Shown: positions 1 to 17,695 of the stretch, one piece after another
Layout: each line of letters starts with the position of its first letter
How positions within the stretch are numbered: the first letter of the stretch is position 1
Notes under the pieces: model-generated
What the model was told of the DNA's origin: nothing
Databases searched by the model: none
What the model saw: only the letters and a program-made list of their open reading frames with translations
Made by a program: the position numbers and the translations under genes
NCBI GenBank assembly: GCA_040905425.1
Contig: JBBDRO010000019.1
Span: 1-21,446, forward strand
Length of the DNA: 21,446 nucleotides
Direction of reading: 5' to 3'
Origin: Gemmatimonadota bacterium
GTDB lineage: Bacteria; Gemmatimonadota; Gemmatimonadetes; Longimicrobiales; RSA9

Positions 1-208
1 TCACCGCCTCCGGATAGCCCGTGCGTGCCAGGAGGCGGAGTGCGTTCGGCGCCGAAAAGACCCCCGGCCGGATGCTGTAGTCAAAACGAACGCCCGAGTC
101 CTCCACCTCCTCGCGGAAGTGCCCGGCCGTCCAGCGCTCCCTGAGCAGCTCCGCCAGCTCCACGTCGTGCGTACCAGGCAAAGGCGCCCCACCCGCCCCA
201 TGAACGCC
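1..208 (-). repeat. Diverged duplicate of the 3' end of the MutS-family ATPase gene (matches 8021-8232); runs off the left edge
   Basis: Manual alignment of 1-172 to 8021-8192 gives 13 mismatches in 172 nt. A 4-nt deletion follows (gtacca vs gtggctacca), and similarity ends at cccatgaacgcc (208/8232). The minus strand encodes THDVELAELLRERWTAGHFREEVEDSGVRFDYSIRPGVFSAPNALRLLARTGYPEAV. Confidence 0.95.
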
Positions 209-268
209 GCGGCGTGGCAAGCTGCATTCGAGGCGGCCTTCCTCGAGTGGGCCCACGGGGTAGCCGTA

Positions 269-766
269 GCCGCTGCCCTGCCAGGTGAGCATGTTCTCGA
301 CGGTGGCGGGCTCCAGCATGCCCCGGCGCTGGAAGAGGCGGAGGATGCGGCGCTGGCGGAGCCGCTGGAGGTGATGGGCGTCGTCGCTTGTGAGGTGGGT
401 GGCCTCGTGGAAGCGGACGGTGCCGGCCGGCTCCTCGCTGAAGAGGCCGTCCAGCACCACCACGTGGAAGTGGAAGTGTGGGTTCAGGGATGAGCCGAAG
501 CTGTGCAGGAAGGAGACGGCACCGGGGCGGGCGTCGGGCGCTGCGCCGGGGCTGGTGCGGCGGAGGCGGGTCTGGAGGGCACGGAGCAGGACGCGCAGGA
601 TGGCGCCGGCCAGCTGGGGATCGTGGGGCAGGTAGGGGCGCAGGCGCTTGGGCAGGGAGAGGACCCACTGACGGAGCGGGACGGGCGGCAGCACGGCGTC
701 GCTCAGGTGGGCGGCCACCTCGACCATCCGCCTGGCGCCGCATGAGGGGCAAGCGCCGCGGCCCTT
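269..766 (-). mobile_element. IS91/ISCR-family (HUH, rolling-circle) transposase, N-terminal-half fragment
   Basis: Manual translation of a frame missing from the ORF track (no stop inside the window): KGRGACPSCGARRMVEVAAHLSDAVLPPVPLRQWVLSLPKRLR...GAVSFLHSFGSSLNPHFHFHVVVLDG...MLTWQGSG. It has the Zn-binding CPSC, RQWVLSLP and HUH motifs. The catalytic-tyrosine region is absent. Confidence 0.9.
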
Positions 767-971
767 GGCGCGATCTGCCTTTGCTGCTGGCGCCATGCCA
801 ACCGCGGCCGGAACAGGGACCTGAGCCCCCTGCCCGTGGACGTGGAGGTGGAGCGGATCGCGAGCGGATGGCACCGGGCGCGCGAGCGCCAGCTGAATCG
901 AGCGGTGGATGTGTTGTGGGGGCAGATTGGTGGCGGGGGCGGGGGTGGCGGCGGTTGAGACTATGCAGGCG

Positions 972-1664
972 TCACTGAGCGTTAACGGCACTATCTCCCG
1001 TTGGACACAAATCTAGCACCGGACACGGCTCGCAGCGCGGGTTCCTACCGATGCAAAGCGACCTGCCATGGTGGACGAGGTTGACATGCAGTGAGTGCCG
1101 CAGGTCAACGGGGACGAGGTCTTGGAGAACATCGTGGGCAGCTTTCCGATCCACCCGTTCTGGTAGAAATCCGAGCCGGGCCATGACCCGTAGGCAGTGG
1201 CTGTCGACGGGGAAGACGGCGCGATCGAGCGAGTAAAGCAGAACGCAACGAGCCGTCTTCGGGCCGACCCCCGGCAGGGAGGTAAGAAACTCTTCGGCCG
1301 CTTCGGTCGTCATCCTGCGCAGCGGTAAGAGTGTGGCAGAACCAAAGGCCTCAATGATGCGTGAGATCTGAGCGGTAAGCCGCAGCCACTTCAATTCGGC
1401 CATACCACCCTGCTCCAGGATCTCCAGCACTGTGCTCTTGTTCATTTCAATCAGTTGGGACCATTCGCCGGCGCAGGCGTTACGAAGACGCTGGTAGGTC
1501 TTGGCGTAGAGACGTTCCTTCGTCCGGATAGAGAGCTGGATGAAAACGAGTTCATCCAACGGGTCTGACTTGTTGCCGAGGGGGCCGCTGTGATAAACGC
1601 ACTCGATCTCGACCGAGATCGTCCTTAGCCGTGCCTCTTCTGACGGTGAATGCCGGTGTGTCAC
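972..1664 (-). CDS. Endonuclease III (Nth)-family HhH-GPD DNA glycosylase with [4Fe-4S] cluster
   Basis: HhH motif LTSLPGVGPKTARCVLL (Lys retained), FPVDSHCLRV (catalytic Asp) and C-x6-C-x2-C-x5-C (CIGRNPRCEPCPVLDLC). The GTG start lies 2 nt after the mcrC stop. Confidence 0.9.
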   Translation of the reverse strand: MTHRHSPSEEARLRTISVEIECVYHSGPLGNKSDPLDELVFIQLSIRTKERLYAKTYQRLRNACAGEWSQLIEMNKSTVLEILEQGGMAELKWLRLTAQISRIIEAFGSATLLPLRRMTTEAAEEFLTSLPGVGPKTARCVLLYSLDRAVFPVDSHCLRVMARLGFLPERVDRKAAHDVLQDLVPVDLRHSLHVNLVHHGRSLCIGRNPRCEPCPVLDLCPTGDSAVNAQ

Positions 1665-1666
1665 GG

Positions 1667-2968
1667 CTATACCAATCCGTCCACCGCAGGCTGGCTGGCG
1701 GCCAGCACGAGTTCGTGGAGCCGCTCCACAGCATGTGCCCGGCGCTGGCTATCCCCCGATGCGAGACCGAACACATCAACGCTGCCCACAGTCAGTTCAC
1801 CCTGGCCGCCGGCAAGTCGGAAGCGGTTGCGCCACGACGATCTCCCACCTTCCCGCATCCAGGCGGCCTCGGGAAAGAGGAGGAGGCCGCGATCGACCGA
1901 ATGTGCGGCCATGTAGGTCGCGACCTGATAGACGTCGGTTGGGCTGAGGCCATGGGAGCCAGATCGACTGGGAAGCTGCTTCCACTTGGCATCCGCAACG
2001 AGGATCGGGTGCCCCCCGCCGTCGGTCAGCAGAAGGTCTGGTCGGAGCGACAGGGATGCCACTCCAGTGGATACCGAATGAAGGAGCCTCGGCCGGACTG
2101 GCCGCAGCGAGAGCTTCGTCCCTAGCGGCGGGCTGGAGGCAAGCGTTCTACGGATAAGGCGCTCGAACACATCATCGAGAGTGAACAGCAGACCGAAACC
2201 CTTCGCTTCACCGGTGCTGGTCGGAATTGGGGCCTGGCCTCGACGTATCAACACCGCAAGATCGACATACGGCCGCCACCGGTCCTCCTGCCTCGAGAGG
2301 CGCACTCTATGCGGCCGTAGGTGGTGAAGGGAAATTATCCGGGCCGCTCCCAACATGCGGTCACAGTGGTCCAGGGTCATGATATCTTGCCGCGATTCGG
2401 CCGCGTCCCGTAAGGCGGTGCCGAGCGCCCGCAGTACCCTGTTGAGGCCATTGTCGAACTGAAGCGGGGCATGCCTGATCGGGGTGACGTGCCTTTCCGA
2501 AGGTAGACTCGTCGCAAGGGCGCTGAAGCGGATTTTGCCCTTGATCTGGCTAAGGCGCTCCTCGCGTATGTGGTATCGCCGAGGCACCCCGAGCAGGAGG
2601 TCACGGTGCAGTTGTGATGAGAACGAGGAGATGAGGACTTGGAGGAGATGGTGGCGTCCGGAGGCGACCGCGGTACGGGAGATGAGCGGTCGCGGCACCA
2701 GCCCGGCACGATCGAGAAGGTCGAATAGAAATCGGCGGAGGTCGTCAGCCGACAGTTCCGCTGTACCTTTTGGAAGAATCTCGAGTTGGCACCACCCCAA
2801 ATCTACCACTCCAACGTAACCTCCTACGACAACGCCGCGCCCTGTGCGCCGGAGAAAATCCCCCGGGAGGCGAGCCGCAGACCTCATCAACCGGTCCCAT
2901 GCGGCGTTCGACACCGGAGTTTCGCTGGAAACAAGGCCGTGCTCGACCGCGGCGAAACGCCTCTTCAT
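1667..2968 (-). CDS. mcrC: McrC-family PD-(D/E)xK restriction nuclease subunit
   Basis: YVGVV...LEILPK N-terminal signature, LRPDLLL...ILVADAKWK catalytic motif and DVYQVATY. It lies directly downstream of mcrB. Confidence 0.9.
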   Translation of the reverse strand: MKRRFAAVEHGLVSSETPVSNAAWDRLMRSAARLPGDFLRRTGRGVVVGGYVGVVDLGWCQLEILPKGTAELSADDLRRFLFDLLDRAGLVPRPLISRTAVASGRHHLLQVLISSFSSQLHRDLLLGVPRRYHIREERLSQIKGKIRFSALATSLPSERHVTPIRHAPLQFDNGLNRVLRALGTALRDAAESRQDIMTLDHCDRMLGAARIISLHHLRPHRVRLSRQEDRWRPYVDLAVLIRRGQAPIPTSTGEAKGFGLLFTLDDVFERLIRRTLASSPPLGTKLSLRPVRPRLLHSVSTGVASLSLRPDLLLTDGGGHPILVADAKWKQLPSRSGSHGLSPTDVYQVATYMAAHSVDRGLLLFPEAAWMREGGRSSWRNRFRLAGGQGELTVGSVDVFGLASGDSQRRAHAVERLHELVLAASQPAVDGLV

Positions 2969-2977
2969 CGGAATGCC

Positions 2978-4297
2978 CTACACCGTCAACCGGACCAGTG
3001 CCTTCCGGAATCGCGAATCGTCCCACTGACGGGAGTCCGGGTTCCACCAGTCGGCTGCACGGGAGACGTGGAACCCATCTGGGTCAACCGCTAGGTCCTC
3101 TGGGAGAGAGGAGGGCTCAGGAATTTCGACGCCTTCAAGAAGCCCACCGCCAGTGACGAAGTCCGTCCTCCGCCACTCCCCGTGGAAATACTCCTGAAGA
3201 AGCGGAAGTACCTTCATCCTGATGATGGAAGCCATGGCTCGGGCCTTTCCGTCATCCGAAGCGTCCCATCCCGCTCGGAACCGGACCTCCTCCAAACTCG
3301 CTTCCATAAAGTCCGAGTGCCCGAGGCGTAAGTCGTGGGACATGAGGACGGTGATGCGGCGATTCATCTCTTCCAGAATGCCAGCCACCGGAATCCCACC
3401 GTAATCCGAGGGGCAGAGAGAGGGCTCGGGAGCGACCTCGACGAATCGGAAGCGGCGGCGAAGCGCGAGGTCGAACACCGAAAGGGACCGATCGGCGGTG
3501 TTCATCGTGGCGAGAATCGACAATCCCGCTGGGACCGAGAACGTAGTTCGCGAATACGGCAGGACCACCGAGCTCTCCTCGCGACCACCTTCGCGCTTGT
3601 CCAGTTCGATTAGCGTGATCAGCTCGCCGAAAACCCGCGATAGGTCGGCGCGATTGATCTCGTCGATGACGAGCACGACATCCTGGGTCTCCTCCTCAGC
3701 TGCTTGAAGTGCCTCGTAGACGGCCCGGAGATGGCTCGAGTTCGTGAGCAGGGTCGTGGGGAGGTTCGTCCTTCTAGATACGTCCTGGCGCTCTTCATTC
3801 CTCGGACCCGCCAGGGACAGCTGATCCGGCTCGATTTCCCTCGCTCGGAGGCGATTCAACGTCCAAAAGTCGGCATACTGCTCAAGGTAAGGCGAAACTG
3901 CATCCGCCCTGTCTACCTCGCTCCGTAGAACGACTCCACCGGCGTCGATCGCGACAACCTCGTACCGGTCGTTCCCTCCCAGCCGATCTCCAACGGACAC
4001 CCACGTCCGGCAAGCAGCGGACGCAGTTTTAAAGGGTCCGTCCACCACTCGGTAAACGATCTCGCCGCGTTCAGTCTCCTGAGGGCGAAAGCCCTCGACG
4101 AAGTCCTCGTACGAATATGACGGGTGAAATGTGACCCAGAAGATCCGCCCCTGGCGCACGAGTTCGTTGTGTCGAGCTCGGGCCTCCTGGGGATCCTCAG
4201 GAATCTGCCCATCGATAAGCCGCAAGGCTTCCCTCGCAGCTCGGTATGTCTTGCCGGTCCCGGGGGGGCCGTAGAAGACGATCATCTCAGCCGGCAT
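2978..4297 (-). CDS. mcrB: McrB-family AAA+ GTPase without an N-terminal DNA-binding domain
   Basis: Walker A GPPGTGKT, FHPSYSYEDFVEG, Walker B IDEINRAD, McrB signature MNTADRS and ALRRRF. A GAGGA RBS precedes the ATG, and an in-frame TGA shortly upstream rules out an N-terminal extension. Confidence 0.93.
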   Translation of the reverse strand: MPAEMIVFYGPPGTGKTYRAAREALRLIDGQIPEDPQEARARHNELVRQGRIFWVTFHPSYSYEDFVEGFRPQETERGEIVYRVVDGPFKTASAACRTWVSVGDRLGGNDRYEVVAIDAGGVVLRSEVDRADAVSPYLEQYADFWTLNRLRAREIEPDQLSLAGPRNEERQDVSRRTNLPTTLLTNSSHLRAVYEALQAAEEETQDVVLVIDEINRADLSRVFGELITLIELDKREGGREESSVVLPYSRTTFSVPAGLSILATMNTADRSLSVFDLALRRRFRFVEVAPEPSLCPSDYGGIPVAGILEEMNRRITVLMSHDLRLGHSDFMEASLEEVRFRAGWDASDDGKARAMASIIRMKVLPLLQEYFHGEWRRTDFVTGGGLLEGVEIPEPSSLPEDLAVDPDGFHVSRAADWWNPDSRQWDDSRFRKALVRLTV

Positions 4298-4388
4298 AGC
4301 GTTCCTCGCCTGCGTCAGTCAGAGGTCGTACCGTCCCATGAGGATGTGGTCCTTCGAGCAGTCGGGCCAGTGCGGAGTCCGGACACAT

Positions 4389-6773
4389 CTAAACTGCCAC
4401 CGCCTGGAGGTGTTCGTCCTGGCGGCGGGCTTGCAGGGTCAAGAGCTGCGCAACGCGGTCGGCCATCTGGTAGCTCAGTAGCGGGGGAACGGCGTTCCCG
4501 ATCACACGGAACGCGTCCACCAGACCAAGATGGCCGAAGGAGAAGGAGTCAGGGAACGATTGGACTCTGGCGGCTTCTCGGACGGAGAGGGAACGGTCCT
4601 CCCACGGGTGCACATAGGCGTACGTATCCTTGCCCATGTGCGTGACGATCGTCTTGCATGCCCGGCTCCCGTCTAGCCTCGCCAACCAGTCGCCGTGGTT
4701 ACCTTCACGTTTGCGAAGGTAGGTGTCCTTCAGCAGATGATGACCGAGTTCGCCAGGTAGCGGATCGATCGACTCCAGCAATAGTCGAATGCTCAGGTCC
4801 CCATCTACCCTCGAAGCGAGCTCATTGAGTTCTTCGGAGGTAATGTACTCGCCGAGAATCTTGCCATCGGCCGCACCGGCGGACATTAGCGCATGGATCG
4901 CTCGTGAAATCATGTTCAACGTAGGGCTGCTGTCACACCTGTAGTCCATCCACCGATTGCCCGGACCCATGAGGCCGAACCACTCGCGATCATCTCGGCG
5001 GTGGTCCCGAGCAACGTGGGAATCCACCGAGCCTTTGCCATGTCCCGCTGCTTGCGTGATCCAGCGCGCATATCGCGCGGCAGGATTGGAACCACCTCCG
5101 AATGTACCGGCGGACCCTAGATCGACAGCGCGGTCCAACCCGGCTCCTACGCCCTGTCCGCCAACTTCGAATGCGGGCGGGAGATCGTGTAGTGCGTGCC
5201 GGAGTGGCACCTCCTCTTGCACAGGCAACGTCAGGAGCCACTCGGATACATCCGCTGCCGCTTCCAGCGCGGCTACGGCCTCGAGCACGCCGGCCATAAA
5301 GAAACGGTCTCGTCTCTGCGGCACCATGTGGTCGGAGGCCATGATAGTCTTACTCGCTAGCCGATAGTTGAGTCCACCGTCCGATAGCTCCCTCACCGCC
5401 TCTGCAAGGATCTCGGTAGCGAGGAAGGTTCCGTCCGGCGTCTGCACCTCCGTCTGGAAGTGCTTGACGTTCTCGAACACGAATACAGGTGGCTGGAGTG
5501 CGCTGACGAACAGGACGTATTTCTCGAACAGCCGATTTCGGACATCGCCCGCCTCTGCGTCATAGTGCACGTGAACACGGTCGTCGCGGAGGCTCCGGAT
5601 CTTACCCCGGCCGATGCGGGAAAATCCCTGACACGGCGGGCCACCGAGCAGCAAAGCCACCCGCCGATCCCCCGTGTACGCTTCCAACATGCTCTCGTCA
5701 ACAGCCTTCTCCCGGAAAAGCAAGAATCGGAGTGAATCGCGCTGCGTGCGCCAATCCAGCCAGATTTGGCGAAGCGAGGGTACCGCCTCGAGAAACTCCA
5801 GAAACTGCCCAATGCGGCGGGCAGAGGAAGCGAGCTGTCCGCGACCACTTCCCTCAGCCTGTTTCCGGAGCCCTTGGGCCTCCCTGTCCCACCGTGCGGT
5901 CAGCTTACCACGAATCTCACGCTGCTGGCGTGACCAGCGGTTTTCGAATGCTCTCGGAAGGCGAAGCTCTTGGGTGGGCACGGCGCCGTCTTCGCGCCAG
6001 AGCATAGATCCGAGGTCAACAGAACGGGTGGAGGGGACGGGCAACCGCAAAGACTCATGGAAGCCCCGGACCGAAGTCTGACCAAGGGCCCGCGAGTCTA
6101 GATCTGCGTATGCCAACGAGAACGGCTCAATGCTTCTGATGGACTCGAACGCGTCGAGGAAGTCGCGGTCGAGCCTCGCGATCACGGCCTTGAACGTGTC
6201 AAGGGATATTGGCTTTCCCCGAGCCAGCAGCGCATCGATGTCTGGCTGCTCCTCTACCATTCGTAGATGATCGAGGTAGAAGGCACGCACTTCAGCCTCA
6301 TTGATGAAGTCGGAAAGGTCCACCTTCCGGGCCACTGGCGACCTGCTCCGGCAGTGATTGACGTTGAAGGTGTGGACCATTGCGTCCTCGACATCTACCG
6401 CTAAGACAGTTTCGAAAACCCGTCCATCTTCAACGAGGTCGAAGCCGAGTGACAGCCCTCCGCAACCGGAAAAGAGATCTACCACGCGCCACCGAGCGGT
6501 CTGGGTAGCAATAGGCCCCAGCTGGAGATTCTCAAGCGGCGATCGGATCCTAGACTCAGGCTGGCGATCGACCCGGGGGGGGTCAGCCTCAAGGCCGTCT
6601 AGCCAAATCCTGTACTTGGCCGCGGAATCGCTCCTCACATACGCCCCCGATAGGTGCCGGCTCAGAGAATCTACGGTGACACCGACCTCGGCGGCTGCAG
6701 CGCGAACGGCGAGTTCCTCCTCGCGCATACGCTGCCGAACGCGCGTCATCAGTGCCTCAATTGATCCTTCCAT
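4389..6773 (-). CDS. DNA (cytosine-5)-methyltransferase with N-terminal HTH and large insertion (794 aa from the likely start)
   Basis: Motif I DLFSGCGG, IV GGPPCQGFS, VI FVFENV, VIII PQRRDR, IX SVREAARVQSFPD and X IGNAVPP. The start is placed at ATG 6773 (GGAGG RBS upstream). The N-terminus AVRAAAAEVGVTVDSLSRHLSG resembles an XRE-type HTH. Confidence 0.93.
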   Translation of the reverse strand: MEGSIEALMTRVRQRMREEELAVRAAAAEVGVTVDSLSRHLSGAYVRSDSAAKYRIWLDGLEADPPRVDRQPESRIRSPLENLQLGPIATQTARWRVVDLFSGCGGLSLGFDLVEDGRVFETVLAVDVEDAMVHTFNVNHCRSRSPVARKVDLSDFINEAEVRAFYLDHLRMVEEQPDIDALLARGKPISLDTFKAVIARLDRDFLDAFESIRSIEPFSLAYADLDSRALGQTSVRGFHESLRLPVPSTRSVDLGSMLWREDGAVPTQELRLPRAFENRWSRQQREIRGKLTARWDREAQGLRKQAEGSGRGQLASSARRIGQFLEFLEAVPSLRQIWLDWRTQRDSLRFLLFREKAVDESMLEAYTGDRRVALLLGGPPCQGFSRIGRGKIRSLRDDRVHVHYDAEAGDVRNRLFEKYVLFVSALQPPVFVFENVKHFQTEVQTPDGTFLATEILAEAVRELSDGGLNYRLASKTIMASDHMVPQRRDRFFMAGVLEAVAALEAAADVSEWLLTLPVQEEVPLRHALHDLPPAFEVGGQGVGAGLDRAVDLGSAGTFGGGSNPAARYARWITQAAGHGKGSVDSHVARDHRRDDREWFGLMGPGNRWMDYRCDSSPTLNMISRAIHALMSAGAADGKILGEYITSEELNELASRVDGDLSIRLLLESIDPLPGELGHHLLKDTYLRKREGNHGDWLARLDGSRACKTIVTHMGKDTYAYVHPWEDRSLSVREAARVQSFPDSFSFGHLGLVDAFRVIGNAVPPLLSYQMADRVAQLLTLQARRQDEHLQAVAV

Positions 6774-7004
6774 CCCACCCCTCCAACCGAACAGATGCCG
6801 AACCTGGTAGCTTGGTAATGCACCACAATACAGCCTCAGAGGCCCCAGCGCATCCCCCTCGTAGCGCGGACCCCGTGTCGGCTCCTTCACTCCGGCGGCT
6901 TGGGTCCTCCTCCACTCAACCCGGATCCTGCGTTTGAGGCTGGTGAGCCGGCCTGAGGCCGTATAAGGGCCCTGCCCGTCGGTGGCGGTACTCTGATTGG
7001 TGTC

Positions 7005-7107
7005 CCCCGTGCTCCATGGGCGTGCCGGAGAGGCGGAGCAGCGCGCGAACGATGGATGAGCAGCCGTCGCTTGACGGTTCGTGATCGAGACGGAGTTCGG
7101 TGCGCAT
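7005..7107 (-). pseudogene. Possible truncated 5' remnant of a gene, reminiscent of VWA-domain protein N-termini
   Basis: A GGAGG RBS precedes the ATG, then MRTELRLDHEPSSDGCSSIVRALLRLSG, after which the sequence stops looking like protein. The family resemblance is from memory only. Confidence 0.3.
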
Positions 7108-7252
7108 GGCGGTGCCTCCCCTTCCGGTGATCGGGTTGAGGGAGGGAAGGTAGGCGGGGGGGTTGACAGCGTGATGTGCTGGAAGGGCGCGGACGGGCGC
7201 CGACGCGACGACAACTGGACACGGAACGGATGCCTGGAGAGAAGAGGCCGGG

Positions 7253-7276
7253 TTGTGGTAGTGATCACGACCACAA
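7253..7276. promoter_or_regulatory. 24-bp near-perfect palindrome, candidate operator
   Basis: TTGTGGT-A-GTGATCAC-G-ACCACAA has one mismatched pair. It can be extended by CGGG/CCCG across a 1-nt bulge. Confidence 0.5.
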
Positions 7277-7381
7277 ACCCGCAAATGTCCTGCGGCCCCG
7301 GCTCGGTGGCCCATCAGGACGGGCGGCTCGGTGCACGTCCGTTCAATCAGCTCGGCGAGCCAGTAGCCCTCGGCCCCCCCC

Positions 7382-7503
7382 CTACTTCACCCCAACCCCC
7401 ACGTTCATCCGGTTCCGCAGCACCGCCCGTCCCCCTCCGACCGCTCCCGGAGCATGCCGTCCATCACCCGCTGCACCTCACGCTTCTGCTCCTCGGAAAG
7501 AAA
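7382..7503 (-). pseudogene. 3' remnant of a probable class I SAM-dependent methyltransferase gene, frameshifted and truncated at the IS end
   Basis: FLSEEQKREVQRVMDGMLRERSEGDG / AVLRNRMNVGVGVK* resembles the C-termini of small SAM methyltransferases (from memory). It has no start codon and abuts the oriIS. Confidence 0.45.
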
Positions 7504-7985: not shown

Positions 7986-9422
7986 CTACCGCGCCTCGTA
8001 GATCTCGAACGCCCGCGCCATCACCGCCTCCGGATAGCCCGTGCGTGACAGGATGCGGAGTGCGTTCGGCGCCGAGGAGACGCCCGGCCGGATGCTGTAG
8101 TCAAAGCGGACGCCCGCCTCCTCCACCTCCTCGCGGAAATGCCAGGCGGTCCAGCGCTCCCCGAGCAGCTCCGCCAGCTCCACGTCGTGCGTGGCTACCA
8201 GGCAGAGGTGGCCCCCGTGTCCCATGAACGCCAGGACCCCAGCGGAGGCGGCAATGCGTTCGCGGGTGTTGGTGCCGCGAAACAGCTCGTCCAGGATGAA
8301 CAGGTGCGGGCCGCGCTCGGCCGCCGCGGACAGGAGACCGCCCATCACTTCAGCCTCCACCATGAAGTAGCTGCGGCCCTCCAGCAGATCGTCCTGCCGG
8401 TCGATGAAGGTGCGTACCTCCACCAACGGACCCCGCCAGGCACGGGCAGGGCAGGTGGCCAACGCCTGGCCCAGAACCGCCGCCACGCCCATGGCACGCA
8501 GGTACGTGGTCTTGCCCGCCATGTTGGAACCGGTGATGAGCAGCGAGCGGCCCTCCGGCCGAAGGTCATTCGGGACCGCGTCCGCCAGCAGCGGGTGGTA
8601 GACGCCCTCACCCAGGAGCTGCGTGGCATCGAGCCCCCCATCCGTTGGCGCGGCCGACGCTTCGGGCACGCACCAGAAGGGGAGGTCCTCCCGCAGCTCC
8701 GCCACCGCGCAGAACGCGTCCAGGCGGCCCGCCTGTTCGAACACCGCCACCATGGCTTGCCGGTTGCGCCGGATCAGTTCGATGCTGAACACGAAGGCGT
8801 TCACGTCTAGGAGGAAGAGCAGGTTGGCGTAGGCCATCAGCGTATCCGCCAGCTCATTGCCGCCGGCCTCGTGCACCAACGAGCTGGTGAGGCGTCCCAG
8901 CCACCGGAGCGATCGGCAGCGCGTGGCCAGCTCACCCACCGCCGGGTCCTCCGCGAGCAGAGGTACCTCCCCCAGCCGCCGGCCGGCCGCCAGCAGGCCG
9001 CGCAGGGCCGCCAGTGGGGGCAGCAGGTGCTGCACGTTCGGCCCGTAGTAGCCCTGCACAACAATGTTGATGGCCACGATGGGCAGGAGCAGCAGGAAGA
9101 GACGCGGCGCCTCCGCGATGGCCTGGCGTGCGGCGGGCCGCTCCGCCAGGCGCCGCACGCCAGCGTCACGCTCCGCCAACTCGGTCCAATCCCGGGCGGG
9201 GTGACGCAGCAGGTCGTAGAGCACCTGCTGGCCCACACCGCTGGACGCGCGATCGATGCGCGCGAAGACCGCGTCCATGTCCAGGTCCCGCCAGGTGCGC
9301 TCGTCCAGGCTACCCGGGGCGGCCGGGCTCCGGAGACGCGCATACAAGTCAATGTCATCGATCTGGCCGGGGAGGGCCCGGAGTTCGCGGCGTGCGCGCA
9401 GTGCCGCCAGCACACTACGCAC
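7986..9422 (-). CDS. MutS-family ATPase (domain V only, membrane-associated MutS-like paralog)
   Basis: LLITGSNMAGKTTYLR, SYFMVE, LFILDELFRGTN, VATHD and FDYSIRPG are present, plus a hydrophobic stretch LFLLLLPIVAINIVV. There is no mismatch-recognition domain. The start is uncertain; GTG 9422 avoids overlap with the upstream gene. Confidence 0.85.
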   Translation of the reverse strand: MRSVLAALRARRELRALPGQIDDIDLYARLRSPAAPGSLDERTWRDLDMDAVFARIDRASSGVGQQVLYDLLRHPARDWTELAERDAGVRRLAERPAARQAIAEAPRLFLLLLPIVAINIVVQGYYGPNVQHLLPPLAALRGLLAAGRRLGEVPLLAEDPAVGELATRCRSLRWLGRLTSSLVHEAGGNELADTLMAYANLLFLLDVNAFVFSIELIRRNRQAMVAVFEQAGRLDAFCAVAELREDLPFWCVPEASAAPTDGGLDATQLLGEGVYHPLLADAVPNDLRPEGRSLLITGSNMAGKTTYLRAMGVAAVLGQALATCPARAWRGPLVEVRTFIDRQDDLLEGRSYFMVEAEVMGGLLSAAAERGPHLFILDELFRGTNTRERIAASAGVLAFMGHGGHLCLVATHDVELAELLGERWTAWHFREEVEEAGVRFDYSIRPGVSSAPNALRILSRTGYPEAVMARAFEIYEAR

Positions 9423-9498
9423 AATGGGCAGGGCGCGTATAGGTGACAGAAACCCGCGCGGGGGGCTATGCGTGGGACTCACCGCACCAGCGAACGTT

Positions 9499-10446
9499 TC
9501 ACAGCAGCGTCTCCAACGCCGGCCCCAGCTCCGGATAGCGCCACTCGAAGCCGGACTCCTGGAGCTTCCGCGGCACCACGCGCGCGCCGGCCAGGATGAG
9601 CTCGTCCGCCATGTCGCCGGGCGCCAGCCGGGCGGCAAAGGAGGGCAGGCGGAAGAAGGCGGGGCGCTCCAGCGCGTCCGCCAGATGGCGCGTGAACTCG
9701 TCATTCGTGACCGGGTGGGGGGTGGTGACGTTCACGGGGCCGGCCAGCTCGGGGTGCGCGAGCACGTGGCTCATGGCGCGCGGCATGTCCGGCAGCGCGA
9801 TCCACGACACCATCTGGCGGCCGCTGCCGAGCGGACCACCCAGTCCCAGCCGGAAGAGCGGCTTCAGCGTGCCGAGCAGGCCGCCCTCTCCGCTCATGAC
9901 CAGCCCGAAGCGCAGGTTGGCCACCCGGATGCCTGCATCGGTGGCGGGCGCGGCGGCGGCCTCCCAGGCGTCCACCACCCGGGCCAGGAAGCCGCGTCCC
10001 CGCGCGCTGGACTCGTCCACCGGTTCGGCGGGCGGCCGATCACCGTAATAATTGACCCCCGAAGCCGTCAGCAGCACCGCGGGCGGGCGCTCCAGCCCCG
10101 CCAGCGTCTCCGCCAGGAAGGCGGTGCCGGCCACGCGGCTCTCCCGGATGCGGCGCTTCTTGGCATCCGTCCACAGGCCGAAGATGGACTCGCCGGCCAG
10201 GTGCACCACCACGTCCAGGCCCTCCAGCGCCGCGCTCTCGATGGTACGCTCGCGCGGGTGCCAGACCGCCACCCGCTCGCCAATGCCCGCCTCGCTGAAG
10301 GAACGCACCAGGCGCGTGACCTCGTGGCCCTGCTTGCGGAAGTGGTCCAGCACGGCCGTGCCCACCAGCCCGCTCGAACCCGTCACCGCCACGCGCAGGG
10401 GGCGCTCGCCGCCGGATGACTGGCTGCTGCTGGTGGAGGTTCTCAC
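9499..10446 (-). CDS. TIGR01777-family NAD-dependent epimerase/SDR (YfcH-like)
   Basis: VAVTGSSGLVG Rossmann motif, VVHLAGESI, WEAAA, LRFGLVMS, GSGRQMVSWI and GPVNVTTPHPVTN. The start is uncertain. Confidence 0.9.
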   Translation of the reverse strand: MRTSTSSSQSSGGERPLRVAVTGSSGLVGTAVLDHFRKQGHEVTRLVRSFSEAGIGERVAVWHPRERTIESAALEGLDVVVHLAGESIFGLWTDAKKRRIRESRVAGTAFLAETLAGLERPPAVLLTASGVNYYGDRPPAEPVDESSARGRGFLARVVDAWEAAAAPATDAGIRVANLRFGLVMSGEGGLLGTLKPLFRLGLGGPLGSGRQMVSWIALPDMPRAMSHVLAHPELAGPVNVTTPHPVTNDEFTRHLADALERPAFFRLPSFAARLAPGDMADELILAGARVVPRKLQESGFEWRYPELGPALETLL

Positions 10447-10453
10447 GTGCGCG

Positions 10454-11614
<1,161 letters not shown>

Positions 11615-14754: not shown

Positions 14755-17664
14755 CTACCGCACCGCCCCCGCCGCGCCCGACCGCCGCGGATCCGCCCCC
14801 GCCACCGCCCGTCCGCCGTCGATCGTGACGGCCGCCCCGTAGCCCATGCGTAGCTCGCCCGTGAGGGAGATGCGCCGGAATTCGTGACCCATGGCCTCCA
14901 GCCGGGCCAGCACCTCGGGGTCGAAGCCGTCCTCGATCTGCGCGGCGCCGCGACCACTCGGCAGCATGCGCGGCAACTCCAGCGCCGCCTGCGGGCCCAG
15001 CTCCAGGTCCATGATGCCCACCGCCAGTGCATAGACCGCCGCCGTGATCCACGCATTGCCCGCCGCGCCGATGGCCGCCAGCGGCCGCCGGTCCCTGCCC
15101 GTGCCCTCGAAGAGCAGCGTCGGCGCGATCACGGTCCCCACGCGCGCGTAGGCCAGCCGCGCGTTCGGCGACTCCGGATCGGAGGAGTAGGAGCGCGCCT
15201 TGTCATTGTAGAGGAAGCCGAGCCCCGGAGTGACATAGAAGTTGCCGCCCCAGGTGCCGAGCGTTTGCGTCACGGCCACCATGTTGCCGCGCCCGTCGGC
15301 CACCGCGAAGGCCGTGGTGCCGCTGGCCGGACAGTCCCACGTGTAGATGCCCACCTCACAGCCATCTTCCTCCTCCTCGTAAGCGACGAGGCCACGCACC
15401 TCCGCGGCCGGCGCGGCCGCGTTCGCGGCGTGCGCCGGGCGCGTGGCGCGCGCGCCGGATGCCGGCGCGGGGACGTCGCTTTCAAGATCCCGTGGGGGAT
15501 AGCCCGCGCAGTCGGGGCGCACGCCGTCCGAGGCCCGCTCGGGGTTGAAGCACTCCCAGCGGGCCGCCGCGGTGTCCTTGCTCTCGAAGGGCGAGTAGTC
15601 CACGGGGAAGAGGTCGGGATCGGCCATGCGGCCGCCGGTGGAGGGCGCCAGCCGCCACGCCTCCATGAGCGCATGCACGCTGCGCGCGTCCCCGGTCCAG
15701 GAACGGGGCGCGTTGGTGCGCTCGAGCAGGTTCAGCTTGCCGGTGAGCAGGGCGCCGCCGGTGGTGGGCGGGGCGCTGGCAAAGACGGTGTAGTCACCCC
15801 GGTAGGTGGTCTGCACGGGCCGGCGCTCGCGCGCGATGTAGCGGCGCATGTCCTGCCGGCTGATGGGATTGCCGTGGGCTGCGAGGTCGGCCACGAGGCG
15901 GCGCGCCACCTCACCCTCGTAGAAGGCGCGGCCGCCGTGCTCGGCCACCTGGCGGAGCGTCCAGGCCAGGTCGGGATTGCGCAGCGTGTCACCAGGCTCG
16001 AGGGGGCTACCGTCACGGAAGAACAGAGCGCGGCTGGACGGCCATTCGGCGTAGCGCTCCTGCTCGCGGCGCAGCGTGGTGGTGAACGCCTCGTCCAGTT
16101 CGAAGCCGTCCTGTGCGTAGCGGATGGCCGGGGCCAGCAGATCGGCCCACGCCACGTTGCCGCTGCCGTACCGGCGGAAGGCCAGCTCCATGCCCGCCAC
16201 GGTACCGGGCACGTTGACCAGTGTGGGCCCTTCCAGCTCGTCGGGCAGGCCGGGCTCGGCGCCCGCCGCGGCGCCCGCCGGCACGCGCGTCATGAACTCG
16301 ATGGCGGTGGGCCGCTCCATGTCCTCCAGGTAGAGCACCATCTGTCCGTAGCCGCCCATGCCGCTGGCATCCGGCTCCACCACGCCCAGGGCAAAGGAGA
16401 CGGCAATGGCCGCTTCCACCACGTTGCCCCCGGCGCGGAGCACCTCGAGGCCGGCCGCCGTGGCCAGCGGATGGGCGCTGGAGACAGCCGCGCGGCCCGA
16501 CGCCGCGCGGCGCAGCGGGGGGCGCTCGGCCATCATGCGGTGCAGGACCCGTTCAAAAGCCTGCGTGTCCTCGGCCTCCACGGCGTCCTCGCGGTAGCGC
16601 TGGCCGAGCTGGCGCCAGCGCTCCAGGGCGTCGGCGGGGGCGCGGGTGGCTCCAGCCACGGCGGTGACGTCCGCCGGCGCGGCGGGGCCGCCGGCCGCCC
16701 CAAAATAGGTGGCGGCCACGCGGTGCCAGGCGCGGTCGAAGGCGGCGGCGTTGGCGGCCTGGCGGTCGGAGGTCACGCTGAGGGTCACGACGCGGGGCGG
16801 TGCCGGCGGCGCGGGCGCGGCCACGAAGCGGAGATTGCCGCCATCGTCGCGGAAGGCATCCCCCGCCGCACGATCACCCTGGCGGTCGGGGTCGCCGTTG
16901 TAGCCGCCGCCGCCCGGCGCCGGGTCGGCCACGGCCAGACGGGTCCCGTCGGGCGACCACGCCGGCTCACCTGCCTCGGTGCTGGCCAGCGTCAGGTAGT
17001 TGCCCGCCGCGTCGGTCACGCGGATGCCGTCATTGCCGCTGAAGGCCAGGCGGCCATCGGTGGACCAGGCGGGTGCGGCTGCGTTCTGCTCGGTGTGCAG
17101 GGGGCGCGCGCTGCCGTCTCGGGGACGCACGTGCAGGGTGGCGCTCCGGCCGCGCTCCGCCACGTACGCAATGCGCTGGCCGTCCGGGGAGAAGGCCGGC
17201 GCGCGCTCCGCGCCCGGCTCCGCCGTGAGCTGCCGCGGCGCGCCGCCGGGCGGCAGCAGCCAGAGATCGGCGCCGGCCCCGGAGCCGCGCACGTAGACGA
17301 TGGCGTCGTCGGGTGCCACGCTGGGCTCGGTCTCCGGCTCCGGCGCGCGGGTCATCCGCTCGGGCTCGCCGGAGGTGCCCGTGCGCCACAGGTCCACGCT
17401 GCCCGCGCGGTCGGATGCAAAGACCACCGCGCCGTCGGGCGTCCACGCCGGATCCCGGTCCCAGGCAGGGCCGCGGGTGAGCTGCTCCGCGCGCCCGGGC
17501 AGGCCGTCGGCGCCGGGGTGCAGAATCCACAGGTCCCCGCGCACCGCCACCGCGATGCGGCCGTCCGCCGCGTAGGCCGGCGCGCGTGCCTGGCGGAGGA
17601 TGTCGAAGTCGGCGGGCGCGGTCTGCTGAAACGCGGCCGCCAGGGCCAGTGCGGTGACGAACAT
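14755..17664 (-). CDS. Gamma-glutamyltransferase-family Ntn hydrolase fused to an N-terminal TolB/PD40 beta-propeller
   Basis: PD40 repeats (DPAWTPDG, APAFSPDG, EPAWSPDG) precede the GGT motifs AVSSAHPLATAAG, GGNVVEAAIA, SGMGGYG, VPGTVAG, nucleophile G-TTAFAVADGRGN and ADPRR. A GGAGG RBS precedes a hydrophobic N-terminus. Confidence 0.88.
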   Translation of the reverse strand: MFVTALALAAAFQQTAPADFDILRQARAPAYAADGRIAVAVRGDLWILHPGADGLPGRAEQLTRGPAWDRDPAWTPDGAVVFASDRAGSVDLWRTGTSGEPERMTRAPEPETEPSVAPDDAIVYVRGSGAGADLWLLPPGGAPRQLTAEPGAERAPAFSPDGQRIAYVAERGRSATLHVRPRDGSARPLHTEQNAAAPAWSTDGRLAFSGNDGIRVTDAAGNYLTLASTEAGEPAWSPDGTRLAVADPAPGGGGYNGDPDRQGDRAAGDAFRDDGGNLRFVAAPAPPAPPRVVTLSVTSDRQAANAAAFDRAWHRVAATYFGAAGGPAAPADVTAVAGATRAPADALERWRQLGQRYREDAVEAEDTQAFERVLHRMMAERPPLRRAASGRAAVSSAHPLATAAGLEVLRAGGNVVEAAIAVSFALGVVEPDASGMGGYGQMVLYLEDMERPTAIEFMTRVPAGAAAGAEPGLPDELEGPTLVNVPGTVAGMELAFRRYGSGNVAWADLLAPAIRYAQDGFELDEAFTTTLRREQERYAEWPSSRALFFRDGSPLEPGDTLRNPDLAWTLRQVAEHGGRAFYEGEVARRLVADLAAHGNPISRQDMRRYIARERRPVQTTYRGDYTVFASAPPTTGGALLTGKLNLLERTNAPRSWTGDARSVHALMEAWRLAPSTGGRMADPDLFPVDYSPFESKDTAAARWECFNPERASDGVRPDCAGYPPRDLESDVPAPASGARATRPAHAANAAAPAAEVRGLVAYEEEEDGCEVGIYTWDCPASGTTAFAVADGRGNMVAVTQTLGTWGGNFYVTPGLGFLYNDKARSYSSDPESPNARLAYARVGTVIAPTLLFEGTGRDRRPLAAIGAAGNAWITAAVYALAVGIMDLELGPQAALELPRMLPSGRGAAQIEDGFDPEVLARLEAMGHEFRRISLTGELRMGYGAAVTIDGGRAVAGADPRRSGAAGAVR

Positions 17665-17695
17665 GCCTTACCTCCGGGAGCGTGGCGGTGAGACC

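Follow-up and report, generated by a model that had tools for sequence, protein, structure and literature searches.

A methylase-linked clade of endonuclease III-like DNA glycosylases as a probable base-excision counterpart of Vsr

The stretch of DNA analysed here, hereafter the window, comprises 21,446 nucleotides (nt) of contig JBBDRO010000019.1 from a Gemmatimonadota bacterium. Near one end it carries a gene for a DNA glycosylase of the helix-hairpin-helix (HhH)-GPD superfamily with a predicted [4Fe-4S] cluster, the last of a row of genes that also encode a C5 cytosine DNA methyltransferase (C5 methylase) and an McrB/McrC-like pair. What does a base-excising enzyme do beside a methylase? 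Cytosine methylation is mutagenic, and the textbook bacterial remedy is Vsr, a T:G-specific endonuclease whose nick falls 5′ of the T. An earlier note on this locus had offered three options for the glycosylase: a Vsr substitute, an eraser of 5-methylcytosine, or an anti-phage effector. From our analysis, the glycosylase is probably a base-excision counterpart of Vsr for T:G/U:G from deaminated methylcytosine of the neighbouring C5 methylase, because its clade is linked and in places fused to methylases, because the distribution of the clade is complementary to that of Vsr, and because its own genome has no Vsr and a single C5 methylase. Methylase-linked mismatch repair by an enzyme lineage other than Vsr or Mig is what would probably be new here; no description of the clade or of its methylase link was found in the full-text literature, most subscription journals lying outside its coverage.

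The glycosylase and its clade

The gene in question was assigned as follows.

972..1664, minus strand: HhH-GPD/[4Fe-4S] DNA glycosylase (P0001), 230 amino acids (aa), GTG start, of the methylase-linked endonuclease III (EndoIII)-like clade

The intact HhH Lys, the Asp and the 4Fe-4S motif pointed out in the earlier note were all found in the translation. Lys136 lies within LPGVGPKTA (residues 130-138), Asp154 within FPVD (residues 151-154), and the cluster ligands are spaced as C204-X6-C211-X2-C214-X5-C220. The layout of hairpin and catalytic Asp, together with the [4Fe-4S] loop, is that of the HhH-GPD superfamily, and the four Cys ligands predict cluster binding. In the Pfam scan only HhH families were matched by the glycosylase: HHH (PF00633) with 25.3 bits, above the cut-off of 24, and HhH-GPD (PF00730) with 20.7 bits, below the cut-off of 26.2. 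The best solved relative was EndoIII-1 of Deinococcus radiodurans (DrEndoIII-1; 8a5c, E 4.2e-29; 4unf, 1.3e-28). The AlphaFold2 model (mean pLDDT 96.1, pTM 0.91) has a two-domain all-helical fold, with TMq of 0.72-0.85 to closed structures of EndoIII, ROS1, MutY and Mig. The top Foldseek matches of the model were EndoIII-1 entries (TMq 0.82-0.85, 33-34% identity); TMq was 0.81 for Nth-DNA complexes, 0.79-0.81 for ROS1, 0.77 for Mig.MthI and 0.44 for the open NTHL1 entry 7rds. The database gene call at this locus is shorter (P0005, 195 aa); as residues 20-39 of the longer product are conserved across homologues and confidently modelled, the 230-aa start was preferred. In PADLOC the glycosylase matched only PDLC03398, 'Type II nicking endonuclease' (E 2.9e-6, residues 127-221), a match that spans only the generic HhH/cluster half and is no evidence of membership.

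From the retained Lys the earlier note had deduced a glycosylase/lyase. That deduction is unsafe, and Lys136 alone leaves lyase activity undecided, because DrEndoIII-1 keeps both residues, Lys and Asp, and yet is described as mostly monofunctional (PMC10523315).

Judged from sequence, the glycosylase is a member of a separate EndoIII-like clade that is distinct from housekeeping Nth. It scored 69.2 bits with the nth model TIGR01083 (cut-off 211.7) and 41.7 bits with the mutY model; the best NCBIfam model, NF053634 (DR2438 type), gave 121.2 bits, the cut-off being 400. A tree was built from 67 rows by maximum likelihood (quick search, SH-aLRT support only), in which stand-ins labelled by NCBIfam best matches below cut-off took the place of authentic Mig.MthI, DME/ROS1 and DrEndoIII-1. 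The glycosylase and 41 relatives formed one clade of 42 rows (SH-aLRT 99), and the sister of this clade consisted of EndoIII-1-like proteins, those matched best by the DR2438-type model (support for the pair 95). Canonical Nth formed its own clade of 11 rows, into which E. coli nth and the Nth of the window's own genome fell (SH-aLRT 96), and two further groups stood apart from the pair, namely MutY with a Mig-like protein (support 99) and the MagIII-like proteins (support 100). The phylogeny proposed in the earlier note, here with stand-in outgroups, thus places the glycosylase outside the housekeeping Nth clade (support 99 vs 96), and the comparison with Mig.MthI made there turns out to be one of analogy rather than kinship, as the clade sits away from the MutY/Mig-like branch. 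Identity with housekeeping Nth was rejected on the score of 69 bits vs 211.7, the separate tree clade and the presence of a canonical Nth (241 bits) in the same genome.

A word-indexed protein search returned 489 proteins at E<=1e-5 among 1056 candidates. Among the 120 matches listed, identity to the glycosylase was 50-74%, its own shorter gene call excepted; the listed clade proteins are almost all metagenomic and are annotated 'endonuclease III' or 'hypothetical', or are unnamed. An alignment of 201 sequences was built from the window protein, 80 related loci and the 120 database proteins. Lys136, Arg139, Cys140, Tyr144, Pro152, Asp154, His193, Gly200 and Cys204 were invariant in 201/201, an invariance that is partly by construction in the 80 loci, which were found by peptide patterns with K..ARC...Y and FPVDS; the cluster cysteines C211, C214 and C220 were kept in 200/201. 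The clade has a patchy distribution in the window's phylum, with matches of at least 210 bits in 6 of 301 sampled genomes, the window's own included, and in none of six genomes of the same family. A tblastn search of PLSDB gave 92 plasmid records, mostly annotated nth and all below 60% identity (39.9% the highest among the 40 listed), with no clade member seen.

Linkage to cytosine methylases and distribution of Vsr

The 80 related loci were taken from one-genome-per-species contigs and searched with a C5-methylase hidden Markov model iterated from the window's enzyme (E<1e-20), and glycosylase profile counts refer to the single best match per locus. They come from taxa that include Gemmatimonadota, Acidobacteriota, Planctomycetota, Desulfobacterota, Chloroflexota, Gammaproteobacteria, Bacillota, Obscuribacterales and Bathyarchaeia. 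A C5 methylase was present within 4.6 kb of the glycosylase in 49 of the 80 loci: 3 fused, 22 at no more than 300 bp, 14 at 0.3-3 kb and 10 at 3.3-4.6 kb. Those within 300 bp were mostly upstream of the glycosylase on the same strand, and no C5 methylase was found at 4.7-10 kb in the 80 loci, though the flanks extend to 10 kb. The three fusions, recognised with Pfam PF00145 and NCBIfam, join an N-terminal glycosylase to a C-terminal C5 methylase (L028, 678 aa; L057, 760 aa; L070, 568 aa). The relatives on IMG/VR viral contigs were accompanied by a C5 methylase in 4/4 cases, directly upstream in two and fused in two near-identical ones.

A paralogue control was made with 30 of the genomes, picked mainly for long flanks. 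Clade-level matches (at least 140 bits) lay within 5 kb of a PF00145 gene in 21 of 33 cases, against 1 of 62 for weaker HhH-GPD paralogues (Fisher p = 1.1e-11); the five weakest paralogue rows had been dropped, and with these restored the linked paralogues were 2/67. Three EndoIII-1-like sister matches of 148-194 bits had no C5 methylase on their contigs in these genomes. Chance linkage was rejected by this control. The earlier note had named, as a finding that would speak against a methylase-related role, the absence of methylase linkage in other genomes; the 49 of 80 loci, the control and the fusions all run the other way.

The sole linked paralogue, L134 (G025:C17:10300-12700), is a candidate Mig-like protein by sequence. 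Its open reading frame (ORF), 578-1507 on the plus strand, lies 81 bp from a C5 methylase and encodes a MutY-like protein of 309 aa without NUDIX, which scored 141 bits with the mutY model, below cut-off. The same genome also has an EndoIII-like clade member and two Vsr genes.

The relation to Vsr was examined for the 59 C5 methylase genes of the 30 genomes, with "nearby" defined as within 5.1 kb. The glycosylase was nearby in 22, Vsr in 15, both in 1 and neither in 23, so that 44/59 had no Vsr nearby. Vsr accompanied 14/37 methylases without the glycosylase vs 1/22 with it (p = 0.005), and a single-seed phmmer search found Vsr in 1/80 loci. The glycosylase clade therefore shows both marks of a Vsr-like role, conserved adjacency or fusion to the methylase and mutual exclusion with Vsr. 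The window's own genome matches the complementary pattern, with one C5 methylase, one clade glycosylase and no Vsr: the single PF00145 gene is the C5 methylase of the island, and Vsr (PF03852) had no match in the assembly, which is 96.66% complete, so that the absence of vsr from the operon, already remarked on in the earlier note, extends to the whole genome. Other contigs of this genome encode a canonical Nth (241 bits against the cut-off of 211.7), a canonical MutY (311 bits against 286.5) and a fusion of Ada with AlkA.

The 248 ORFs lying closest to the glycosylase genes, two on either side, were scanned against Pfam. They included the restriction nucleases TdeIII, EcoO109I, BsoBI, MvaI/BcnI and Bpu10I, as well as AIPR, HATPase_c_3, DUF2357-PDDEXK_7, GmrSD and MZB (DUF1998) proteins, and the McrBC pair beside methylase and glycosylase recurs, as in the window, in L032 and L051. 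Since the partners vary while the methylase is constant, the glycosylase appears tied to the modification arm and not to one cutting mode. Two kinds of cassette were seen besides. In L028 (7465-11902) an MZB (DUF1998) protein, a PLD-family nuclease and the glycosylase-C5 methylase fusion stand in a row, in a DISARM-like arrangement, and a shorter MZB-methylase-glycosylase cassette occurs in L038, L048, L051, L066 and L079 and partly in L037.

The island in the window

The other features of the window are listed below.

1667..2968, minus strand: McrC-like protein (P0002), 433 aa; Pfam McrBC PF10117, E 2.5e-43, 148.7 bits
2978..4297, minus strand: McrB-like AAA+ protein (P0003), 439 aa; AAA_5 PF07728, E 5.6e-14
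4389..6773, minus strand, ORF open to 7274: C5 cytosine DNA methyltransferase; PF00145, E 8.6e-37
2..991, minus strand: IS91/Y2-type transposase fragment; Y2_Tnp PF04986, 29.5 bits, and Zn_Tnp_IS91, 21.3 bits (weak)
7986-9704, minus strand: MutS domain V protein, 572 aa; sole match PF00488, E 2.6e-26
14755-17664, minus strand: PD40-repeat and gamma-glutamyltranspeptidase protein, 969 aa

The G+C content of the window is 67.8%; it is 60-62% over ~1000-7000, vs 68-78% in most other parts. This low-GC island holds four co-directional minus-strand ORFs in the order C5 methylase, McrB-like, McrC-like and glycosylase, separated by gaps of 91, 9 and 2 nt, the McrC-like stop codon lying 2 nt ahead of the glycosylase start. 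The single strand and the short gaps fit a predicted operon. Beyond the glycosylase the island is flanked by the transposase fragment, which runs off the contig end, and this fragment, taken with a G+C content 8-10% lower over ~1000-7000, suggests that the island was horizontally acquired. A scan of 700-7500 for promoters and terminators gave matches at or below shuffle expectation; a terminator-like hairpin was noticed at 7295-7279, between the C5 methylase and the MutS-domain gene.

The C5 methylase carries the motifs FSGCGG, PPCQGFS, ENV, QRRDR and GNAVPP in its translation and scored 109.1 bits with TIGR00675 (dcm), above the cut-off of 100.65. Translation likely starts near 6773, at the Met of 'MEGSIEAL': roughly the first 167 codons of the ORF are Pro/Ser/Thr-rich and high in GC and look non-coding, and G+C climbs above ~6500, inside the ORF. 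A possible helix-turn-helix-like stretch follows just after this Met. PF00145 matched in three pieces (model 2-56 at 6312-6488, 62-164 at 5277-5660 and 261-321 at 4455-4643), which leaves an apparent insert of ~215 aa separating the motif I region from motif IV. The McrC-like protein contains a PD...DAK stretch (RPDLLL...VADAKWK in the translation), which we take to be the McrC nuclease motif. In the McrB-like protein GPPGTGKT (residues 10-17) and IDEINRAD were read from the translation; it begins directly at Walker A, without an N-terminal DNA-binding domain, and scored 106.9 bits with the NCBIfam McrB model PRK11331, below the cut-off of 637. Relatives in the phylum match it over residues 7-142 at most, plus 194-428, so that an internal stretch of ~50-100 aa (~143-193, widening to as much as 95-197 in most relatives) looks like an insert that they do not share and that might be the DNA-reading part. 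With the McrB-like protein as query, the four-gene layout was not met again among 301 phylum genomes, where the best non-self match had 140.8 bits over residues 198-393 only, and none of 6 same-family genomes was matched.

The MutS domain V gene lies just upstream of the island and has host-like G+C. Antisense to the PD40/gamma-glutamyltranspeptidase gene runs a 935-aa ORF (14884-17691, plus strand) without family match, most likely an artefact of the local 73-78% GC.

Proposed function and comparison with known systems

If the glycosylase is a counterpart of Vsr, the C5 methylase would mark the target sites, where deamination of 5-methylcytosine to thymine would leave T:G, and deamination of cytosine, enzyme-promoted or spontaneous, would leave U:G. 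The glycosylase would flip out and remove the mispaired pyrimidine via Asp154 and possibly Lys136, after which the apurinic/apyrimidinic (AP) endonuclease, polymerase and ligase of the host would restore C. The McrB/McrC-like pair would then be the restriction arm of the island, the glycosylase being accessory to the methylase and not to restriction.

Several observations weigh against this function. No C5 methylase lies in the flank of 31/80 loci, of which 14 have less than 2.6 kb upstream and 17 an ample flank, and two of the 30 genomes (G009 and G016) contain the glycosylase with no PF00145 match anywhere. At five loci without a C5 methylase (L019, L026, L058, L064 and L080) the glycosylase adjoins a PF01555 methylase with SPP[YF], a motif typical of N4-cytosine methylases. 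As these are probably N4-cytosine enzymes, the logic of 5-methylcytosine turning into T is not directly applicable there, and the clade may serve cytosine methylation in general, perhaps via U:G. In ten loci of Gallionellaceae type (L023, L025, L029, L042, L062, L065, L068, L069, L071 and L078) the glycosylase is followed by Peptidase_M3, and in 6/10 also by a DUF4124 gene, with variable genes upstream (restriction-modification (R-M) cassettes, HNH, RhuM, or an HATPase_c_3 ATPase with a putative O-methyltransferase); here the glycosylase may be a fixed core gene beside an insertion hotspot, which would explain part of the linkage at these loci. The Vsr test ignores kinship, and 6/14 of the Vsr-only methylases come from one genome (G011). 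Vsr (8254-8664) and the glycosylase (9920-10612) do occur together, in L062 only, with a C5 methylase 3.3 kb upstream. The invariance of Lys136 in 201/201 also fits poorly: the known HhH-type T:G glycosylases, such as Mig.MthI, are without this Lys. Finally, the activity reported for the closest characterised relative, DrEndoIII-1, is a weak one on thymine glycol and on single-stranded DNA, not one on T:G (PMC10523315).

Other explanations were weighed on the same evidence. An enzyme that repairs some other by-product of the methylase and is not T:G-specific (U:G only, 3-methylcytosine, damaged or oxidised methylcytosines, or AP sites via Lys136) is unlikely, yet it has several points in its favour: linkage ties the enzyme to the methylase and not to a particular lesion, T:G is unexpected at the five loci with probable N4-cytosine methylases, the invariance of Lys136 suits a lyase step, and C5 methylases can cause off-target alkylation. 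Against it, complementarity with the T:G-specific Vsr points to the same lesion, and we know of no HhH/[4Fe-4S] enzyme for 3-methylcytosine. Could the glycosylase instead be the restricting component, excising bases from unmethylated or modified invading DNA while the methylase protects the host? The gene always stands in R-M or defence contexts, some cassettes (e.g., L012 and L067) have no recognisable nuclease among the scanned neighbours, and a restriction part fused to a methylase is a known design. That glycosylases can restrict is documented for R.PabI, which has a different fold (PMC4081073). We nevertheless regard such an effector as distinctly unlikely: a bona fide restriction nuclease or McrBC is often co-present, so that the glycosylase is a third component; it consists of one catalytic domain of 230 aa and lacks an additional domain for specificity; it persists without a C5 methylase in the 17 loci with ample flank and in G009 and G016, which is unexpected for a self-toxic effector; and it excludes Vsr.

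Little credence can be given to an ordinary extra EndoIII paralogue for oxidised pyrimidines, whose operon position would be meaningless. The linkage of 21/33 vs 1/62 and the fusions speak against such a paralogue, as do the three EndoIII-1-like matches outside the clade without a methylase on the contig, the 121 bits against the NF053634 cut-off of 400, and the canonical Nth already present in the genome. What it does account for is that the closest structure and fold and the best NCBIfam model are of the DrEndoIII-1/DR2438 type, with Lys and Asp kept, in an enzyme for which action on thymine glycol is reported (PMC10523315). An eraser that excises 5-methylcytosine itself, as DME/ROS1 do, is highly improbable. 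ROS1 was matched in both sequence and fold (E 4.7e-12; TMq 0.79-0.81) and the Lys is kept, but Nth and the Deinococcus enzymes match better than ROS1, the glycosylase is one contiguous 230-aa domain unlike the split core described for DME-like enzymes (PMC9266487), and excision of its own methylase's marks would be expected to nick the host and expose its genome to the restriction partner. Of the three options in the earlier note, the Vsr substitute is thus the one favoured by linkage, fusions and Vsr complementarity, and the 5-methylcytosine eraser and the anti-phage effector find little support.

A role as counterpart of Vsr could be part of something wider, which we put forward tentatively. 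The clade would be a dedicated 'methylcytosine-damage' glycosylase/lyase recruited by all kinds of cytosine-methylating systems, and would partner the methylase physically, covalently so in the fusions, confining excision to the target sites of the methylase. Its hosts would, with the same reservation, be systems of 5-methylcytosine and probably N4-methylcytosine, among them Type II R-M, McrBC-like, DISARM-like and AIPR cassettes and virus-borne methylases. If so, bacteria, archaea and their viruses would share a second way, through base excision, of countering the mutational cost of methylation. The counterpart role by itself, if true, would explain how Vsr-less methylase systems limit C-to-T decay, and the island in the window would bring both a methylase and the repair function that goes with it. 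It would also help to annotate R-M and defence islands better, such genes being named 'endonuclease III' or 'hypothetical' at present, and might yield a context-directed T:G or U:G glycosylase/lyase for practical use.

Among known enzymes, DrEndoIII-1 (DR2438; 4unf, 8a5c; NF053634) has the solved structure closest to the glycosylase (E 4e-29), and both keep Lys, Asp and cluster; the glycosylase differs from this type in its score (121 vs 400 bits) and in forming a separate sister clade (SH-aLRT 99). DrEndoIII-1 is described as a mostly monofunctional enzyme that acts weakly on thymine glycol and also acts on single-stranded DNA (PMC10523315). As a weak lead, the DR_2438 transcript was reported to be lower in D. 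radiodurans without its N4-cytosine methylase (log2 change -1.15; PMC6712171). Nth (TIGR01083) has in common with the glycosylase the fold, the HhH-GPD motif, Lys, Asp and the Cys4 cluster, and differs in score (on its model the glycosylase reaches 69.2 bits, the cut-off being 211.7, and the genome's own Nth 241 bits) and in its separate canonical clade. DME/ROS1 are likewise HhH-GPD/[4Fe-4S] enzymes with Lys and are tied to cytosine methylation, and there is a solved structure of ROS1 bound to a T:G mismatch (entry title 7yho). The glycosylase, in contrast, is prokaryotic, encoded in an operon, and a contiguous domain with neither a split core nor extra domains; in both sequence and fold ROS1 is a poorer match to it than Nth and the Deinococcus enzymes.

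The gene for Mig.MthI lies on a Methanothermobacter R-M plasmid beside a C5 methylase, and the enzyme has Tyr at the Nth Lys position, where the clade has Lys136 in 201/201. Mig.MthI (1kea) shares superfamily and cluster motif with the glycosylase and, being described as an HhH/[4Fe-4S] T:G glycosylase (PMC9266487), is a plausible functional model. It is nevertheless distant (E 3e-6, TMq 0.77, 18% identity), and in the tree, where no true Mig was placed, the Mig-like stand-in L134 joined MutY, far from the glycosylase clade. Vsr is alike in genomic role: each is a small gene beside a C5 methylase, and the two replace each other. They have no sequence or fold relation, one being an endonuclease and the other an HhH-GPD/[4Fe-4S] glycosylase that, unlike Vsr, would repair through base excision and also adjoins probable N4-cytosine methylases in 5 loci.

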